Shown piece after piece: positions 21,542-45,244 of a stretch of 64,000 nt of DNA. Each line of letters starts with the position of its first letter. The stretch's first letter is position 1. The position numbers and the translations under genes are program-made. This stretch comes from an uncultured archaeon (GTDB lineage Archaea; Micrarchaeota; Micrarchaeia; Micrarchaeales; CABMGC01). The stretch spans positions 1-64,000 of the forward strand of contig CAWBCT010000013.1 in assembly GCA_963787445.1 (NCBI GenBank), read 5' to 3'. The notes under the pieces are model-generated. The model searched no databases, had not been told where the DNA came from, and saw only the letters and a program-made list of their open reading frames with translations.

Positions 21542-21604
21542 GTCAGACCACCCCAACCGCAAAACCTTTAACTACGTCCAGCCATGTTATTTTAAGGTTT
21601 GAGC

Positions 21605-22873
21605 ATGCTGGACACGACCTCGCTGATAAACAACCTCTGGGTCCTCATTGCCGCACTGCTCGTATTCCTGATGACCGTAGCCGTCGGATTCCTTGAAATC
21701 GGCGAGCTCGGCGACCGCTTCTCGAACAGCCTGACAAAGACGATGCTCATAACGGGCACCGCCCTTTTTGTCATGGCCTTCGTAGGGTTCAACATCGCGT
21801 TCGCGCCCACCATCGGCGGCCTGTTCGGCAACCCGTTCTACAATGGCGTGTTCCTGGGCGGCTTCTCGAGCAACATAATGGGCGTCTGGTGGTCCATGAC
21901 CGCCTCATTCTTCAACACCGGCCTGACCACCGCAACCTACTTCCTCTTTGAGACCGCCTTCGCGGCTGTCACGCTCGCCCTTGTAAGCGTCATAGTGCTG
22001 AAGAAGATGAAGCTCAGCGCATTCATGGTCTTCTCCGTGGTGTACTTCCTGATAATCTGGACGCTGCCCGCCGCCTGGATCTGGAACCCGACCGGCTGGC
22101 TGTACCTGATGGGCTTCCGGGACTTTGCCGGAGGACTGGTCGTCCATGGCGCGGCCGCCGCGGCAGGCCTGGGAATACTCTTCCAGATCTGGCAGGAGGA
22201 AAAGAACAAGGGCTTCAAGAAGAGCCCGGCGGTGCCAGTGAAGCTTAACAAGGGATGGCTCACCCTCTCCATACTTCTGCTCTGGATTGGCTGGTTCGGA
22301 TTCAACCCCGGCAGCGTGCTCGCGTTCAATGAGAGTGCGATGACCGTGGTCATAACCACCTTCCTTGCCGCTGCGTCCGCGATGGTCTCCACGCTGCTCT
22401 TCAGGTACATCGAATCCGGCCAGAAGCCGGACCTCTCCTACGACGTCAACGGAGTGCTGATGGGCCTCATAATAATAACTCCGCTCGCAGGCTTTGTCAG
22501 CCCTCTGAGCGCGGTGATACTTGGCGTACTGGGCGGTCCCCTATTCGTATATGGAAGCAAGATAATCTCCAAGGCAAAGTGGTTCACCGATCCGATCGGC
22601 CTGCTTCCGGGCCATATGCTTGGTGGAATCTTCGGAGTGCTGATGATCGCGTTCTTCACTCAGAGCTCCTTTGCTGCAGCCTCTGGAAATTCCAATCTGC
22701 CCAACGGCCTTCTCTTTGGAGGCGGGACAGCCGCATTGTCCCAACTTGGCATAGAAGTTCTTGGAATAGCCGTTGTGATGGTCTTTGTTTTCGTGGTGTC
22801 CTACCTAACCTGTGTTGCAATAGCCTGGCTACTTGACGGAATAACTACAGATTATGGAAAGCACAGTCACTAA
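21605..22873 (+). CDS. amtB: Ammonium transporter
   Basis: FETAFAA, DFAGGLVVH, LWIGWFGFNPGS, TDPIGLLPGH; about 11 TM helices. Confidence 0.95.
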   Translation: MLDTTSLINNLWVLIAALLVFLMTVAVGFLEIGELGDRFSNSLTKTMLITGTALFVMAFVGFNIAFAPTIGGLFGNPFYNGVFLGGFSSNIMGVWWSMTASFFNTGLTTATYFLFETAFAAVTLALVSVIVLKKMKLSAFMVFSVVYFLIIWTLPAAWIWNPTGWLYLMGFRDFAGGLVVHGAAAAAGLGILFQIWQEEKNKGFKKSPAVPVKLNKGWLTLSILLLWIGWFGFNPGSVLAFNESAMTVVITTFLAAASAMVSTLLFRYIESGQKPDLSYDVNGVLMGLIIITPLAGFVSPLSAVILGVLGGPLFVYGSKIISKAKWFTDPIGLLPGHMLGGIFGVLMIAFFTQSSFAAASGNSNLPNGLLFGGGTAALSQLGIEVLGIAVVMVFVFVVSYLTCVAIAWLLDGITTDYGKHSH

Positions 22874-36137: not shown

Positions 36138-36253
36138 TGTCAAACGGCCATAGGGACGGGGAAACGCCCGAACCCATTCCGAACTCGGAAGCTAAGCCTG
36201 TCCACGATGTGAAATACTGCCGTAGCGGTGGGAAGACACATTGCTGTTTGGCA
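36138..36253 (+). rRNA. rrf: 5S rRNA, stand-alone
   Basis: Terminal helix TGTCAAACGGC/GCTGTTTGGCA, conserved CCCATTCCGAAC..GAAGCTAAG; own TATA box and T-tract. Confidence 0.95.
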
Positions 36254-36771: not shown

Positions 36772-36847
36772 TGGTGCGAGTGCCGGGATTTGAACCCGGG
36801 TTATTGGGTTGGAAACCCAAAGTTCTACCAGGCTATACTACACTCGC
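36772..36847 (-). tRNA. tRNA-Gly(TCC)
   Basis: GCGAGTGTAGTATAGCCTGGTAGAACTTTGGGTTTCCAACCCAATAACCCGGGTTCAAATCCCGGCACTCGCACCA; CCA encoded. Confidence 0.97.
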
Positions 36848-36961
36848 ATAGAAGCGGATAATACTTCATATCTTAACCAATATAATACTTTTCAGGGCAC
36901 TAAACCGAAGAGCTCAGAAAGCTATTTATTAACCAGCGTGCTTATAGCGTCAAGTGATAGA

Positions 36962-37603
36962 ATGGGACTACTTTTAGACGGTGTAATCGGCGTAGTGCTG
37001 CTGATAATAGTGCTGGCCGTGATAGCGATATACAACGGGCTTATCTCGAAGCGCAACCGCGTCCAGGACGCATGGGCTCAGATAGACGTGCAGCTGAAGA
37101 GAAGGTACGACCTCATTCCTAACCTGCTCGAGACTGTGAAAGGCTACGCCAAGTACGAGAAGGGCGTGCTGACCCAGGTCACAGCACTGCGTTCCTCCAT
37201 AATAACCGGAACACCTGAGCAGAAGGCTGATGCAAACAACAAGCTCAGCGCTGCGTTCAAGAGCATCTTCGCGGTTGCGGAGAACTATCCCGACCTGAAG
37301 GCCTCGCAGAACTTCAGGGACCTGCAGAGCTCCATCCAGGACACGGAGGACAAGATCTCGTTCGTCCGCACATCGTATAACGACTACGTGCTTGACTACA
37401 ACAACGGGCTGCAGCAGTTCCCGAGCAGCATCTTTGCGAACGCGTTCCACTTCCAAAAGTTCGACTACTTCCAGACCGCTGCCGAGGCAGAGCGCGAGCC
37501 CGTGAAGGTGAACTTTGACGACCTGAATGGTGGCGCACCAGCTTCACCTCTTCCTGCCCACAAAAGTGCAGGAAAGGCGGCAAAGGGCAAGAAGGGCTCC
37601 TAA
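36962..37603 (+). CDS. lemA: LemA family protein
   Basis: AWAQIDVQLKRRYDLIPNL.ETVKGY, AVAENYPDLKAS. Confidence 0.96.
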   Translation: MGLLLDGVIGVVLLIIVLAVIAIYNGLISKRNRVQDAWAQIDVQLKRRYDLIPNLLETVKGYAKYEKGVLTQVTALRSSIITGTPEQKADANNKLSAAFKSIFAVAENYPDLKASQNFRDLQSSIQDTEDKISFVRTSYNDYVLDYNNGLQQFPSSIFANAFHFQKFDYFQTAAEAEREPVKVNFDDLNGGAPASPLPAHKSAGKAAKGKKGS

Positions 37604-37616
37604 TCAGGCGTAGCGG

Positions 37617-38522
37617 ATGGCCAGCTTCTTTGACGAGATAGCGCGCAACAAGCTCAAGTCGCTGCTGCTCATGGCCATCTTCATCGCCTTCTTCGCATTC
37701 ATAGTTCGGATTTTCGTCCTGCTTCTCGGAGGCGGGCTCCTGCTCTTCCTCTTCGGCTTTGTGATAATACTCCTCTACGCCGGCTTCGTCTACCTGTACG
37801 GAGACAGCCTCACCCTGAAGATGGCGGGCTCGCAGGAGGCTGATAGAAAGCAATACAGCTCCTTGTATAGCATAGTCGAGGGAATTGCTGCCGCATCGCA
37901 GGTTCCGATGCCCAGGGTCTATCTAGTCAACGATTCTAGCCCCAACGCCTTTGCGACCGGGCGCAACAAGAAGGTGTCGGGCATCTCAGTCACCACCGGT
38001 CTGCTAAACATCATGGACAAGCGCGAGCTTCAGGGAGTGATAGCCCACGAGATGTCCCACATAGCCAACGCTGACGTGCAGTTCATGATGATCGCGATAG
38101 TTTTCGCAGGCGTGATAGGCCTCATAGCCGCCGCCATAAGGCTCAGCTTCTTCTTCGGGGGAATGAGTGGCGGCAGGGGGCGCGGCGAGGGCGGCATTAT
38201 ACTCATACTTATCGGCCTACTTATCGGAATACTTGCTCCCATCTTCGCCCTGCTTATTCGCCTTGCGATCTCAAGGCGCAGGGAGTACGTAGCTGACGCA
38301 AACGGCGCAAGGATAACTCGGGATCCGCAGGGCCTCGCCAGCGCGCTTACTAAGATAAAGGGCTACGCCTCCTCTCCGAACGCGCAGGGCGTAAAAAAGG
38401 CTAACGAAGTTGACGCACCGATGTATTTTGCAAATCCGCTGAGCGGCAAGAACATAGGCAACCTGTTCTCAACACACCCTCCGATAGACGAGCGGATCGC
38501 GCGTTTGAAGAAGATGTACTAA
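37617..38522 (+). CDS. htpX: HtpX zinc metalloprotease (M48)
   Basis: PNAFATG, AHEMSH, ISRRREYVADA, FSTHPP. Confidence 0.96.
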   Translation: MASFFDEIARNKLKSLLLMAIFIAFFAFIVRIFVLLLGGGLLLFLFGFVIILLYAGFVYLYGDSLTLKMAGSQEADRKQYSSLYSIVEGIAAASQVPMPRVYLVNDSSPNAFATGRNKKVSGISVTTGLLNIMDKRELQGVIAHEMSHIANADVQFMMIAIVFAGVIGLIAAAIRLSFFFGGMSGGRGRGEGGIILILIGLLIGILAPIFALLIRLAISRRREYVADANGARITRDPQGLASALTKIKGYASSPNAQGVKKANEVDAPMYFANPLSGKNIGNLFSTHPPIDERIARLKKMY

Positions 38523-38604
38523 ATCAATTAGTGACTGCGCACACTCCTAAGCTCTTAAGCAAATCCATAAATATGTCAAACGCCTGACTATAACTTGTGG
38601 TGAA

Positions 38605-39408
38605 ATGCAAAAAATGAGAAGACTAGCTTCAGCTGCAATTCTTGCCTGCGCTTTAGCTGGGCAAAAGGGATTGCTAGGACAGCCGGAGCAACAAAACCTG
38701 CAAGGTCCTAATTTATCATTTGCAGCCAACGAAACGGTTTCGTCCAGATATGTGAAAAGCACGGGTAGCCCGATAGGCATAGGTCCTGTACAGCAATCCC
38801 AGCTAGATCTTAATCTAGGTAACTATTTCACGGCAACAGGTTGGCAGGATTATGACACTACGCGCAGGGCCATGGATGAAGTGGACGCCTATGTGACGGC
38901 CCACAAGGAGCTCTACGCCATTAAAAATCCATATCTGGCCGGCCGCATATCTGCCAGCATAAGTGCACAGGACTGGCTTTATCCTTCTAAACTGATTAGC
39001 AGCCATGATGACCAAGCCCTTATCTCAACACTGACCTATGCCGGCCCTATAACCCTAAAATTTACTGAGAAGCACATGCTTACTAATGGTTTGACTTGGA
39101 GCAGAAATAATTATGTCTTTGATTTATCAAAAGCGTTTGAGGTAGGTTCATGGGGGAGCTCAAAACTTACTCTAGCTCCTACCTTTAGGGTTGCATACGA
39201 TGACAATTTCTTCGGGTATAACGGCTGGAATATCATGACCCCAGGCGGCTCTCTGAAGTTCTCCACAGACAACATTTCAATAGAGGTATTCGAAAAGAAG
39301 GAATTTAGAATGAATGTCCCACCAACAAAAAGAGGGTTTTCTTACGGGGGCGTGTCGGTGACATTTAATGACTTACCAAGGACTATTAAAGGTCTGAAAA
39401 GGCACTAA
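38605..39408 (+). CDS. Secreted protein with predicted 12-stranded beta-barrel (TorF/Gcw_chp porin-like)
   Basis: Signal peptide; VSSRYV..G....GPVQQ, W..YD...DEVDAY, WLYP and YGGVSVTF; twelve amphipathic strands counted by eye. Confidence 0.6.
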   Translation: MQKMRRLASAAILACALAGQKGLLGQPEQQNLQGPNLSFAANETVSSRYVKSTGSPIGIGPVQQSQLDLNLGNYFTATGWQDYDTTRRAMDEVDAYVTAHKELYAIKNPYLAGRISASISAQDWLYPSKLISSHDDQALISTLTYAGPITLKFTEKHMLTNGLTWSRNNYVFDLSKAFEVGSWGSSKLTLAPTFRVAYDDNFFGYNGWNIMTPGGSLKFSTDNISIEVFEKKEFRMNVPPTKRGFSYGGVSVTFNDLPRTIKGLKRH

Positions 39409-40095
39409 CTTCTTACTAGATATATGAGGACCGACTTGCCTCGTTCTCCTTTCCTTTAACACTCCTTGACTCCCGTGGCTTTCCGCAAACTCCGCGTAGT
39501 ATCTGTCTACTGTGGTCTGAGGATCATCCCTATTTAGCCTTTTAAGTATGCTAACCTTTTTCATCCCGTTGCGACCACGGCCCAGGGCGCTCCTAACCTT
39601 AGGGTCCCTGAAGATTTTTCCAAGAAAACCGACCAGCTCGCGGGAAAGACTCTCGTGATGTCTCTCAAGAATACCTTCTATGGCAATTTCATTTGCGTTT
39701 ATTGGAGAGCTTAACAAATCTATCCTGTTGTCATTAATCAGCCGCTTTGCAACCACGACCTGTGCTATTGCAAGTTTTAAGATCTCAGGCTTTACTTTTG
39801 GCTTTGATAGCAACAGAGCGAGCGCACCCTTCTCGCTTCCCGAGGCGATGTACTCCTCTAGCGTGTTCCCTCCACTGCTCCTCATGGCGAGCGCCTCGTC
39901 GTCTTGCACGGCAACAGCGACATGGTTTTCATCGTTCCTTATCGCAATGAATAAATTGCGGCCATCCGGAGGATTTGGGTTCTTCTTGAATTCCTGTATG
40001 AATCTGAGGGACTCTGCCCTGAGCTGAACTGGTTCTCTCGGAGCCCCGCTGCCCCCTCTCGCTGCGTGCTTTGGAGGAGCTGCGCTTACGATCAT
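39373..40095 (-). CDS. Hypothetical protein
   Basis: 240-aa ORF with TTTAAATA promoter; convergent overlap with the barrel-like gene. Confidence 0.6.
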   Translation of the reverse strand: MIVSAAPPKHAARGGSGAPREPVQLRAESLRFIQEFKKNPNPPDGRNLFIAIRNDENHVAVAVQDDEALAMRSSGGNTLEEYIASGSEKGALALLLSKPKVKPEILKLAIAQVVVAKRLINDNRIDLLSSPINANEIAIEGILERHHESLSRELVGFLGKIFRDPKVRSALGRGRNGMKKVSILKRLNRDDPQTTVDRYYAEFAESHGSQGVLKERRTRQVGPHISSKKLVPFQTFNSPW

Positions 40096-43615: not shown

Positions 43616-45102
43616 ACTCCAGTCGATGCTGCTGGAGGACACTGCTATCAGATTTCGACAGCCATGCAAGTCAACATCTCGACATGAGGTGTGGCACACG
43701 GCTCAGTAACGCGTGGTCAATCTAACGTAGAGAAGGGCATAACCTTGGGAAACTGAGGCTAATTCCATATAGGCTACGGATGCTGGAAGGCACTGTAGGC
43801 GAAACGGGATGCGAAATGGAGCATTTCCGCTCTACGATGAGACTGCGTCGGATCAGGCAGATGGCGGGGTAACGGCCCACCATACCTTTGACCCGTAGGG
43901 GATATGAGAGTATGAGCCCCGAGAAGGGCACTGAGACAAGGGCCCTAGCGCTACGGCGTGCAGCAGGCGCGCAAACTCCACAATGCGGGAAACCGTGATG
44001 GGGGGAGTCTGAGTGGCAAGCTTTTAGCTTGCCTTTTGCTAAGTTTAGTCAGCTTGGCGAATAAGTGCTGGGTAAGACCGGTGGCAGCCGCCACGGTAAT
44101 ACCGGCGGCACAAGTGGTGTTCACTATTATTGGGTTTAAAGCGTCCGTAGCTGGCCGAAACCGTCTTATGTGAAATGTAGGCGCTCAACGTCTATACGTG
44201 CATAAGATACCTTTCGGCTAGGGAGCGGGAGAGGTTTGGAGTACTTATGGGGTAGTGGTAAAATACTGTAATCCTATAAGGACTACCTGTGGCGAAGGCG
44301 CCAAACCAGAACGCATCCGACAGTGAGTGACGAAGGCTAGGAGAACGAATCGGATTAGATACCCGAGTAGCCCTAGCAGTAAATCATGTAGACATTGGTG
44401 TTGCACCTATCTCGAATAGGTGCAGTACCGTAGGAAAACTGTTAAGTCTACCACCTGGGGAGTACGGCCGCAAGGTTGAAACTTAAAGCAATTGGCGGGG
44501 GAGCACACAAGGGGTGGATGCTACGGTTTAATTGAATTCAACGTCGGGAATTTTACCTGGAGCGACGGCAGGATGAAGGTCAAGCTAAAGACTTTGCCTA
44601 ACGAGCCGAGAGGTGTTGCATGGCGATCGTCAGTTCGTGGTGTGAACTATCAGGTTAAGTCCTGTAACGAACGAGATCCTCGCTGACAGTTGCAACCGGC
44701 GCAGATGTGCGCCGAGCACTCTGTCAGGACCGCCTGCGTTTAAGCAGGAGGAAGGAGAGGGCTACGGTACGTCAGTACGGCCCGAATCTCCAGGGCTACA
44801 CGCGGCATACAAAGGTTGGCACAATGGGTTGCCACTCAGAGATGAGGAGCTAATCCCCTAAAACCAATCTAAGTTCGGATTGAGGGTTGAAACTCACCCT
44901 CATGAAGTTGGAATCCCTAGTAATCGCATGTCACCATCGTGCGGTGAATATGTCCCCGCTCCTTGCACACACCGCCTGCCAAGTCATCCAAGTGGGGTCT
45001 TAGTGACGCCGTATCCTAACAGATGCGGTCGAACTAAGGTTTCGTGAGGGGGGCTAAGGCATAACAAGGTATCCGTAGGGGAACCTGCGGATAGATCACC
45101 TC
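43616..45102 (+). rRNA. rrs: 16S rRNA, unlinked, highly divergent (Micrarchaeota-like)
   Basis: CCATGCAAGTC, GGATTAGATACCC, GAAACTTAAAG, CTTGCACACACCGCC and 3' GATCACCTC landmarks; ~1.49 kb, no intron. Confidence 0.98.
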
Positions 45103-45244
45103 AAAACTTTTTACAAAGTTTTATTATAAACTAGTGTGCGTACAGAACAGAATTGCGTTGCCTCGCATTAATACTCAAGACTACATCTTTCCTTATTTTT
45201 ATGGTTCTTAGCTGAGCCGTATCTTTTTACAGCCCTACGGTACT

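Follow-up and report, generated by a model that had tools for sequence, protein, structure and literature searches.

A predicted twelve-stranded outer-membrane-type beta-barrel encoded in DPANN archaea, with remote kinship to the bacterial Gcw_chp/TorF putative porins

The stretch of DNA analysed here (the window) comprises 64,000 nucleotides of contig CAWBCT010000013.1 from an uncultured archaeon of the Micrarchaeota (assembly GCA_963787445.1), and our subject is a gene on its forward strand for which a first-pass annotation, made from the sequence without database searches, had proposed an exported, porin-like beta-barrel. The open reading frame (ORF) is present as that annotation described it, at positions 38605-39408 of the + strand with the stop codon included, and its translation has 267 residues; in the window it comes after genes for LemA and an M48 (HtpX-like) peptidase. 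The features of the gene and its upstream region are as follows.

38567..38574, + strand: TATA-like box ATAAATAT, about 25-30 nucleotides upstream of the Shine-Dalgarno-like motif and start, read from the sequence
38599..38603, + strand: GGTGA Shine-Dalgarno-like motif, complementary to the 3' end of 16S rRNA and 10 nucleotides before ATG 38614
38605..39408, + strand: barrel gene, 267 amino acids from ATG 38605, with a probable true start at ATG 38614 (264 amino acids)
38605..38658, + strand: Sec-type signal peptide, residues 1-18, with an n-region (K3, R5, R6), an h-region and A-L-A
38713..39366, + strand: predicted 12-stranded beta-barrel domain, residues 37-254, as indicated by AlphaFold2, fold matches, two-faced strands and conservation
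39343..39366, + strand: last strand YGGVSVTF, residues 247-254, resembling a beta-signal, with alternating hydrophobic residues and ending in Phe
39367..39405, + strand: basic C-terminal tail NDLPRTIKGLKRH, 13 residues, predicted as a helix (257-266) at lower confidence and present in part of the family

The AlphaFold2 model, built on an alignment of 103 sequences (99 relatives, eight fragments having been dropped, together with the query and three close homologues), has a mean predicted local distance difference test score (pLDDT) of 90.0 and a predicted template modelling score (pTM) of 0.82, and consists of a signal-peptide helix, twelve long antiparallel strands that form a closed barrel, and a short C-terminal helix. 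DSSP assigns the strands to residues 37-46, 62-71, 75-84, 89-106, 113-125, 136-146, 150-158, 168-183 (which has a bulge), 186-202, 205-221, 224-235 and 244-254. All 12 of the segments that the first-pass annotation had named as alternating strands fall inside these, and its reading that the protein has no helical anchor agrees with the model, in which helices are limited to the signal peptide (residues 2-17) and to residues 257-266. The barrel domain includes a conserved loop 1 (YVKSTGSPIGxGPVQQ, residues 49-64) and, on the side of the lumen, W80, E92 and D94.

Comparison of the model with the PDB by Foldseek gave 85 matches at E <= 1e-3, and of the roughly 40 that were inspected, nearly every one is a barrel of the outer membrane or a protein constructed from such a barrel. 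In a structural ranking from a Foldseek-independent search, which listed 50 neighbours, KdgM came top (Z 16.3; root-mean-square deviation 2.7 Å over 168 residues), followed by PcoB (Z 15.9), FapF (Z 15.8), VhGalP (Z 15.6) and a COG4313 channel (Z 14.9), and further down by the autotransporter barrels BrkA and NalP (both Z 14.5), NanC (Z 14.3) and a designed 12-strand barrel (Z 13.6). The first 49 of the 50 listed neighbours are membrane-embedded barrels; the sole soluble one, LolA, stands at rank 50 with a Z of 8.3. Each of the 12 strands is two-faced across the family, the mean Kyte-Doolittle value being +0.64 to +1.94 on the hydrophobic face and -0.64 to -1.64 on the polar one, and it is the polar face that bears E92 and D94, the charged residues with the highest conservation. 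Twelve strands enclose more space than a hydrophobic core could fill, and it is because of this width, a matter of established barrel geometry, that the polar face is predicted to line a water-filled lumen. As a prediction, we regard the fold, a closed barrel of 12 strands like those of bacterial outer membranes, as solid; the closure for which the first-pass annotation had proposed an AlphaFold check is seen in the model, and the nearest solved folds are monomeric outer-membrane porins.

Translation probably begins at ATG 38614 (Met4), since the GGTGA motif, which pairs with the 3' end of the genome's own 16S rRNA (...GATCACCTC), has a proper spacing only for this second ATG (10 nucleotides, versus 1 nucleotide for ATG 38605); the public gene call, P0002, likewise begins at Met4 and has 264 amino acids. 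The earlier reading of the motif as a Shine-Dalgarno element holds in that it is present and complementary to the 16S rRNA, but GGTGA-N4-11-ATG is not enriched in the window (16 observed against 11.9 +/- 3.0 expected, with 14 of 100 shuffles reaching 16). With a frequency no higher than chance, the motif was rejected as evidence for the gene, with which it is compatible. The TATA-like ATAAATAT may be an archaeal promoter. At the N terminus, K3, R5 and R6 are followed by the hydrophobic LASAAILACALAG and then by A-L-A at residues 16-18, the motif by which the probable cleavage site is placed; the Sec-type signal peptide named by the first-pass annotation can thus be read in its three parts, and the model has a helix at residues 2-17. 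By a crude heuristic, 89 of the 103 family members, and 17 of the 19 that are anchored in genomes, have an N-terminal hydrophobic segment preceded by Lys or Arg. A lipoprotein was considered and rejected, Cys15 falling inside the signal peptide and not being conserved.

The query has no Pfam or NCBIfam match at E <= 1, and the family profile found no match among PDB sequences at E <= 10; a bacterial profile gave one PDB match (E 0.81), which was judged meaningless. An exhaustive phmmer search of 1.84 billion cluster representatives returned 107 relatives at E <= 1e-3 (43 at E <= 1e-10 and 9 at E <= 1e-30), that is, a family of about 107 clusters at 50% identity, most members of which have 220-310 amino acids. 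Identity between its subgroups is 13-26%, G54 is invariant in the 103-sequence alignment, and Q64, W80, E92 and D94 are each conserved in at least 90%. When the 103 members were scanned singly, a few distant ones gave weak matches, mostly to families of outer-membrane barrels: Autotransporter (three), Gcw_chp (two), OMP_b-brl, DUF481 and YaiO (one each), and, among non-barrel families, DUF6805 and DUF6434 (one each). One metagenomic protein, P0087, is twice the usual length at 582 amino acids, with the barrel matching residues 369-550; judging by its sequence, it may be a fusion in which about 360 residues precede the barrel.

A resemblance to bacterial TorF/Gcw_chp putative porins had been pointed out in the first-pass annotation, and the motifs on which it drew (S.Y..G...P..Q, E.D.Y and YP) are real, being the most conserved positions of the family and aligning with those of bacterial Gcw_chp. 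Feature matches in the Atlas, to bacterial OMP-like clusters with 4 of 30 in the TorF set, served as a lead in the same direction. Nine of the 12 bacterial ORFs that we retrieved exceed the PF09694 cut-off (47-171 bits), and TIGR02001 ('TorF family putative porin') matches nine of the nine bacterial relatives tested. When an archaea-only alignment (19 genome-anchored ORFs) and a bacteria-only one (nine ORFs), kept separate to exclude circularity, were compared by hhalign, they matched with 98.1% probability (E 8.9e-14, 174 columns), the S-x-Y-V-x-x-G, P-x-x-Q, W, E-x-D and Y-P motifs, also visible in the bacterial ORFs, being lined up. The archaeal hidden Markov model (HMM) matches all 12 bacterial ORFs (25-63 bits), and a bacterial member is modelled alike, with 12 strands and a small loop 1 hairpin (pLDDT 83, pTM 0.78) and with KdgM as its best PDB match (Z 18.2). 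Each of the 103 family members is scored far higher by the archaeal HMM (78-244 bits) than by its bacterial counterpart (-1 to 57 bits). The 24-bit cut-off of PF09694 was reached in none of the 23 carrier genomes (best 23.1 bits, in genome G511), and TIGR02001 matches five of the 19 DPANN members weakly at E <= 0.01 (best 2.7e-5), the query not being among them. Because the query lies below these curated thresholds its kinship to Gcw_chp is remote: the homology itself stands, while membership by the curated models does not. We consider it a solid prediction that the query family is a divergent DPANN-type branch of the uncharacterised Gcw_chp/TorF putative-porin superfamily. The best-scoring ORF of genome G511 (G511:C15:1903-2418, - strand, 234 amino acids), which is from the phylum that holds the Woesearchaeota, matches the DPANN profile at E 3e-12 and Gcw_chp at 23.1 bits and, by these scores, is an intermediate bridging the two.

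That the gene belongs to an archaeon is supported from several sides. The source genome (1.05 Mb in 19 contigs) is 82% complete with 5.4% estimated contamination, and the same contig carries an archaeal 16S rRNA gene (43616-45104, 1391 bits) 4.2 kb from the barrel gene. Continuity was examined in Logan contigs assembled separately from four soil-metagenome runs, all of one study, which hold 54-81% of the sampled words of the stretch; one of the four may be the source sample, so that the support from bridging is not fully independent. The 5' junction with the M48 peptidase gene is bridged with 0 differences by contigs of three runs (X1, 37977-38712; X2, 38354-39154; X3, 38327-38882) and the 3' junction by an X1 contig (38869-40161) with 2 differences and 1 gap. 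At the barrel locus the contigs of the four runs showed no joints, and a chimeric assembly was rejected on this ground. Where members of the closest clusters carry names, they are annotated as hypothetical proteins of Candidatus Micrarchaeota or Micrarchaeaceae; Micrarchaeota homologues sit on contigs of 92.6 and 83 kb, and those of the Woesearchaeota-holding phylum on contigs of up to 660 kb. The gene is real and is carried by an archaeal contig, as the first-pass annotation had taken it to be, and the continuity that it had wished to see confirmed is present, in these assembled contigs, at both gene ends.

The distribution of the family, counted with its profile over sampled genomes of which many are incomplete, is as follows.

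Micrarchaeota, the phylum of the window: 2 of 201 genomes, including this one; 0 of the 2 other genomes of the same genus
Phylum holding the Woesearchaeota: 22 of 401 genomes, up to 261 bits, on contigs up to 660 kb
Thermoplasmatota: 0 of 151 genomes
Aenigmatarchaeota phylum: 0 of 151 genomes
Halobacteriota: 0 of 151 genomes
Thermoproteota: 0 of 121 genomes
Candidate phyla radiation (CPR)/Patescibacteria: 2 of 181 genomes, 24-29 bits
Bacteroidota: 29 of 251 genomes, weaker matches of 61 bits or less
Pseudomonadota: 11 of 251 genomes, weaker matches of 44 bits or less

The family was thus not found in 574 genomes sampled from four other archaeal phyla. In Micrarchaeota the barrel gene is a rare accessory gene, and the core envelope role considered earlier is not borne out by a gene that two of 201 sampled genomes of the phylum carry and that both other genomes of the same genus lack. 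In a quick maximum-likelihood tree of 33 genome-anchored sequences (19 archaeal, 14 bacterial or CPR), which is unrooted, one branch parts the 19 archaeal from the 14 bacterial and CPR sequences (Shimodaira-Hasegawa-like approximate likelihood-ratio test, SH-aLRT, 94), and the Micrarchaeota trio forms a clade (99) nested within a well-supported Woesearchaeota-type clade (98). Because the range is wide in bacteria and narrow in archaea, a single interdomain transfer into DPANN archaea, which would have run from bacteria, and a later transfer between DPANN phyla are suggested. On the simplest history, a Woesearchaeota-type lineage would have received the gene once from bacteria, and the family would have diversified in that lineage before a few Micrarchaeota acquired it in turn. 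The weak CPR relatives (L298, 1078-1806, - strand, 243 amino acids; L299, 1126-1845, - strand, 240 amino acids) have a signal peptide and a terminal Phe. CPR/Patescibacteria are generally thought to be without a classical outer membrane; a barrel of this kind would here occur in an ultra-small episymbiont for the second time.

Membrane-spanning beta-barrels are regarded as a hallmark of diderm bacteria and of their organelle descendants, and their assembly is taken to be Omp85-dependent. The last residue is aromatic in 69 of the 103 family members (Phe in 66) and in 10 of the 19 genome-anchored ones; in the 69, positions -2, -4 and -6 are hydrophobic in 90, 91 and 87%, Gly stands at -7 in 70%, and 81% have a hydrophobic or aromatic residue at -9 (Tyr in 36, Trp in 8). 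To judge by sequence, the C-terminal pattern of these 69 members is the C-terminal signal of bacterial outer-membrane proteins (OMPs). About one-third of the family has no aromatic terminus, and part of it, including the subgroup of the query, has a short basic tail after the last strand. In the query, the terminal Phe followed by 13 extra residues was described correctly in the first-pass annotation (F254 and the tail NDLPRTIKGLKRH). Such a tail would be unusual for a substrate of the barrel assembly machinery (BAM) and would fit a relaxed constraint on the C terminus in hosts that do not have BAM. A search for BamA/TamA, which that annotation had suggested, yielded no Omp85 over the cut-off in the 23 carrier genomes: the present genome, 82% complete, has no match to PF01103 at E <= 1, and among the 22 others there is one sub-threshold match (14.6 bits). 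The carrier genomes are incomplete, and absence of Omp85 is accordingly not provable from them. In a control of 14 named genomes, seven gave an Omp85 match, in every case over the cut-off: E. coli, Caulobacter, Synechococcus, Thermus, Deinococcus, Bacteroides and Thermotoga.

The surroundings of the gene differ from genome to genome. The three Micrarchaeota barrel loci are not syntenic: in another Micrarchaeaceae metagenome-assembled genome (MAG; L004, 4649-8211) the barrel gene lies between genes for E2 (2-oxoacid_dh) and E3 (Pyr_redox_2) on the same strand and looks like an insertion into a 2-oxoacid dehydrogenase operon, and at L005 it is near secY and adjoins a divergent gene for a TrmB-like regulator. 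The two same-genus genomes keep LemA-M48 (68-77% identity) without the barrel, and tblastn found no remnant of it in them better than E 0.95. At the 16 loci of the Woesearchaeota-holding phylum the ORF is intact and has archaeal housekeeping flanks (S28e, aIF5A, ATP-dependent DNA ligase, Hef, aminoacyl-tRNA synthetases); indeed, all 19 genome-anchored copies are intact ORFs of 213-331 amino acids. An all-against-all comparison of the neighbours at the 19 loci revealed one subfamily of TrmB-like regulators no more than three genes from the barrel in five loci of both phyla, often divergently oriented (L005, 5152-5871; L033, 4317-5054; L034, 6847-7650; L037, 3271-3909; L044, 5806-6543; all soluble, 212-267 amino acids). 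This subfamily is a candidate for a dedicated regulator of the barrel, although the window has none beside the gene. An ABC ATPase family occurs near the barrel, at varying distance, in four of the 19 loci, and a membrane protein of about 200 amino acids with six hydrophobic segments lies within three genes of it in three (L031, 7999-8643; L033, 1178-1801; L034, 4761-5348), with no Pfam match at E <= 1e-5. The candidate of a conserved operon partner or assembly factor was rejected, none of the three recurrent neighbours being a plausible insertase, and no recurrent insertase-like or chaperone-like partner was found among the neighbours in the 19 loci.

A functional lead comes from the bacterial relatives, in which amt is adjacent to the barrel gene in four of eight non-CPR loci (L166, L167 and L169 on the same strand; L174 as amt-glnK) and the barrel gene of a further locus, L177, is beside a glutamine synthetase gene. 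The window also has an Amt gene:

21599..22873, + strand: Amt gene (PF00909, 196.9 bits), 16 kb upstream of the barrel gene

Amt was found in four of the 63 DPANN genomes tested. It is present in all three barrel-positive Micrarchaeota (G000, which is the genome of the window, G202 and G203) versus one of 20 barrel-negative ones, which are all of the window's family, whereas G202 and possibly G203 belong to other families; both same-genus relatives have neither Amt nor the barrel. The probability of finding all three carriers among the four genomes, out of 23, that hold Amt is 4/1771, or about 0.002, with the proviso that kin are not independent. Amt is, by this co-occurrence, a candidate functional partner of the barrel in Micrarchaeota, and the conserved acidic residues of the predicted lumen would fit a cation-preferring channel. 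For the bacterial Gcw_chp/TorF family, this would be a first functional lead, as an outer-membrane partner of the ammonium transporter.

With a probability of roughly 0.6, we consider the best explanation overall to be that the gene encodes a Sec-exported 12-strand transmembrane barrel, a divergent DPANN branch of Gcw_chp/TorF, with the history given above and a mechanism of the following kind. It would be a stand-alone accessory gene under its own control, adjoined in several genomes by a dedicated TrmB-like regulator. The protein would be exported and relieved of its signal peptide, after which the barrel would insert into a lipid layer without BAM, as small OMPs can in vitro. There it would form a narrow water-filled channel with an acidic lining (E92, D94, W80) and with loop 1 folded at its mouth, passing small polar or cationic solutes, of which ammonium, handed on to Amt, would be the best candidate in Micrarchaeota. 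The more specific proposal, which is that DPANN archaea own true transmembrane beta-barrel channels that insert without BAM into a non-bacterial membrane, be it an outer lipid layer, so far unobserved, of some Woesearchaeota and Micrarchaeota or the membrane of a partner cell, and serve as outer nutrient gates, in Micrarchaeota for ammonium on its way to Amt, is one that we make tentatively and think rather more apt to fail than to hold.

Where such a barrel would reside bears on how these proposals are to be taken. The first-pass annotation had invoked two membranes for the archaeal Richmond Mine acidophilic nanoorganisms (ARMAN), a view that PMC4243693 traces to Comolli et al. 2009. For Micrarchaeota this is not supported, in that the cultured Candidatus Micrarchaeum harzensis is described in a preprint (bioRxiv 10.1101/2021.04.28.441871) as having a proteinaceous surface layer (S-layer) for an outer layer and a single membrane. 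The S-layer of the cultured relative, the rarity of the gene and the harm that would come from an open pore narrow the options to a second lipid layer, the membrane of a partner cell or a role outside membranes, and the first two together rank above the third because of the fold neighbours, the two-faced strand pattern and the retained beta-signal. As a site for the barrel, the carrier's own energised membrane is less plausible than an outer lipid layer of that cell or the membrane of a partner.

Several points weigh against a transmembrane barrel with this history and mechanism. The outward hydrophobic face, the thickness of the belt, the aromatic girdles and the pore radius are drawn from the strand pattern and the fold matches, not from geometry, and AlphaFold2 may be biased towards barrels for amphipathic beta sequences. 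The terminus of the query, with its 13-residue tail after F254, is not a canonical beta-signal. We know of no OMP for which spontaneous insertion into archaeal isoprenoid lipids has been shown, and a cell would be harmed by an open pore in its own energised membrane. Nor do Micrarchaeota have a known membrane for a barrel of this kind, the cultured one being described in the preprint cited above as having an S-layer on a single membrane. As to history, the key branch of the tree has an SH-aLRT of 94, under the 95 that is taken as strong, and the direction of transfer is drawn from distribution only, the tree being unrooted. As to function, that of the bacterial family is itself putative only; the set for the Amt comparison is imperfect, its negatives being of one family and kin not independent; amt is adjacent in none of the 19 DPANN loci and lies 16 kb away in the window; and Amt was found in none of 20 barrel-positive and none of 20 barrel-negative genomes of the Woesearchaeota-holding phylum. 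Because Amt is missing from the genomes tested in that phylum, ammonium cannot be the general substrate.

The same observations bear on what else the protein might be. A pore directed at a host, exported by the carrier and inserted into the membrane of a partner at the contact site, there to act as a conduit drawing small nutrients, a weapon or feeding tube, would accord with a patchy, accessory distribution of the kind typical of host-interaction genes, with the finding of no BAM in the carriers and with the harm expected of an open pore in a single membrane of one's own. It would also suit DPANN archaea as the episymbionts of reduced metabolism that the literature describes, and a cultured micrarchaeon that has no outer membrane to hold a barrel. 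We nonetheless think it unlikely, since no secretion or delivery system or toxin-like partner is linked to the gene at the 19 loci, the closest bacterial relatives resemble housekeeping nutrient channels beside amt, and co-occurrence with the carrier's Amt in Micrarchaeota is better matched by uptake into its own envelope; nor did the literature searched contain an experimental precedent in archaea. A barrel repurposed for work outside membranes, either secreted or associated with the S-layer or a pseudoperiplasm, where it might bind a hydrophobic or small ligand or bury its hydrophobic face in an oligomer, appears more improbable still. The first 49 of the 50 listed structural neighbours are membrane-embedded (LolA coming at rank 50, Z 8.3), 12 strands make a barrel too wide for a hydrophobic core, the most conserved charges, E92 and D94, are on the polar face as for a water-filled lumen, and the beta-signal pattern is kept in 69 of 103 members. 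These considerations have to be set against the lack of a known second membrane in the cultured relative, an outward orientation of the hydrophobic face that comes from the sequence pattern and not from coordinates, and the gain, in the query subgroup but not in its bacterial relatives, of a basic C-terminal tail predicted as a helix.

That the gene is a decaying or neutral leftover of a bacterial transfer, with no present function, is brought to mind by its rarity and patchiness and by the missing assembly machinery in its carriers. It is nevertheless very improbable in view of the 19 of 19 genome-anchored copies that are intact at 213-331 amino acids, the motifs, signal peptides and two-faced pattern conserved in a family of approximately 107 clusters at 50% identity, the recurrence of a specific regulator beside the gene, and a divergence (13-26% identity between subgroups) deep enough to imply long retention. 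Least credible of all is an assembly chimera or a bacterial contaminant of the bin: the estimated contamination of 5.4% and the bacterial type of the family are what it has in its favour, and they are met by the archaeal 16S rRNA gene 4.2 kb away on the same contig, by the contigs of four runs (of one study, possibly including the source sample) that bridge both junctions with no joints, and by homologues in archaeal context at 18 other loci.

The nearest known kind to this protein is Gcw_chp/TorF (PF09694, TIGR02001). The likeness covers size (226-261 amino acids in bacteria), the signal peptide, the motifs, the predicted 12-strand barrel with a loop 1 hairpin, KdgM as best match, in a comparison of predicted models on both sides, and an end in a hydrophobic or aromatic residue in most bacterial and DPANN members. 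The DPANN members differ in being below the curated cut-offs, in having archaeal hosts with no detected Omp85/BamA, in not being beside amt/glnK, unlike the genes of the bacterial loci, and, in the query subgroup, in the added basic tail; moreover, the Pfam title is 'Bacterial protein of unknown function', whereas the carriers here are MAGs of Micrarchaeota and Woesearchaeota. The PDB profile search found no solved structure for the bacterial family, and the literature searched had almost nothing on it, the name TorF family turning up in one paper. The nearest solved folds, the KdgM/NanC porins (PDB 4pr7, 8xua, 2wjr), are also small monomeric 12-strand barrels with short loops, but there is no detectable sequence relationship to them: identity in structural alignments is 7-11%, the query has no Pfam match at E <= 1, and the family profile has no PDB match at E <= 10. 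The lumen of KdgM and NanC is basic and lets acidic sugars pass, in contrast to the acidic residues conserved in the predicted lumen of the query family.

Two archaeal proteins call for comparison. Ihomp1 (Imp1227) of Ignicoccus hospitalis is a small alpha-helical oligomer, not a beta-barrel, and has no sequence or fold relation to the query barrel. It is cited in PMC4243693 as a proposed pore of that organism's second, outer membrane. The only printed hint that we found of an OMP-type barrel in a DPANN archaeon is one sentence in Parr et al. 2025 (PMC12228718) on a possible distal relative of the PopA superfamily in Altiarchaeales; PopA differs, according to the same text, in having 16 strands, a plug and radial oligomers, and the Altiarchaeales are another lineage with a reported double membrane. 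We found no description of beta-barrel porins of Micrarchaeota or Woesearchaeota in the literature searched, which did not cover supplementary tables. The label of an undescribed system, for which the first-pass annotation had put the locus forward as a candidate, is too strong for one gene that stands alone, lacks conserved machinery in its surroundings and belongs to a bacterial superfamily that is known, though uncharacterised; we see in it a new archaeal form of that bacterial kind.

What makes this variant of interest is that a coherent, long-retained barrel family sits in ordinary chromosomal context in two DPANN phyla with no Omp85 detected in its carriers, which raises the questions of how the envelopes of uncultured DPANN archaea are built and whether OMP assembly in a membrane, or delivery to one, can work without BAM. 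Should the proposal of DPANN-owned channels prove true, Archaea would have in these proteins their first native family of porin-type beta-barrel membrane proteins; should the barrel turn out to be soluble or an inactive leftover, the finding would shrink to an unusual interdomain gene transfer.

Some further observations concern the neighbourhood of the gene. The M48 peptidase gene adjoins the barrel gene both in the window (37617-38522) and in two Bacteroidota loci (L166, 2-1396; L167, 3-1442), probably by coincidence, since the same-genus archaea keep LemA-M48 without the barrel. Downstream in the window, a convergent ORF (39373-40095, - strand), which overlaps the 3' end of the barrel gene, has no family and is not conserved beside the barrel; the contigs of several runs are without one base at 39439 or 39442, inside this ORF, and because the missing base would shift the frame of its last 22 or so codons, the end of the ORF, or the ORF itself, is doubtful. 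The window also has a 5S rRNA gene (36140-36252) and two tRNA genes. Protein genes occupy the 7 kb that separate the 5S from the 16S rRNA gene, and a 23S rRNA gene was reported nowhere in the 64-kb window, for which reasons the rRNA genes are unlinked. Finally, tRNA-Gly (36772-36847, - strand) overlaps the first 13 codons of the longest LemA ORF (36809-37603, + strand, TTG start); because of this overlap, and because the Pfam match starts at residue 88, the real start of LemA is probably further downstream.

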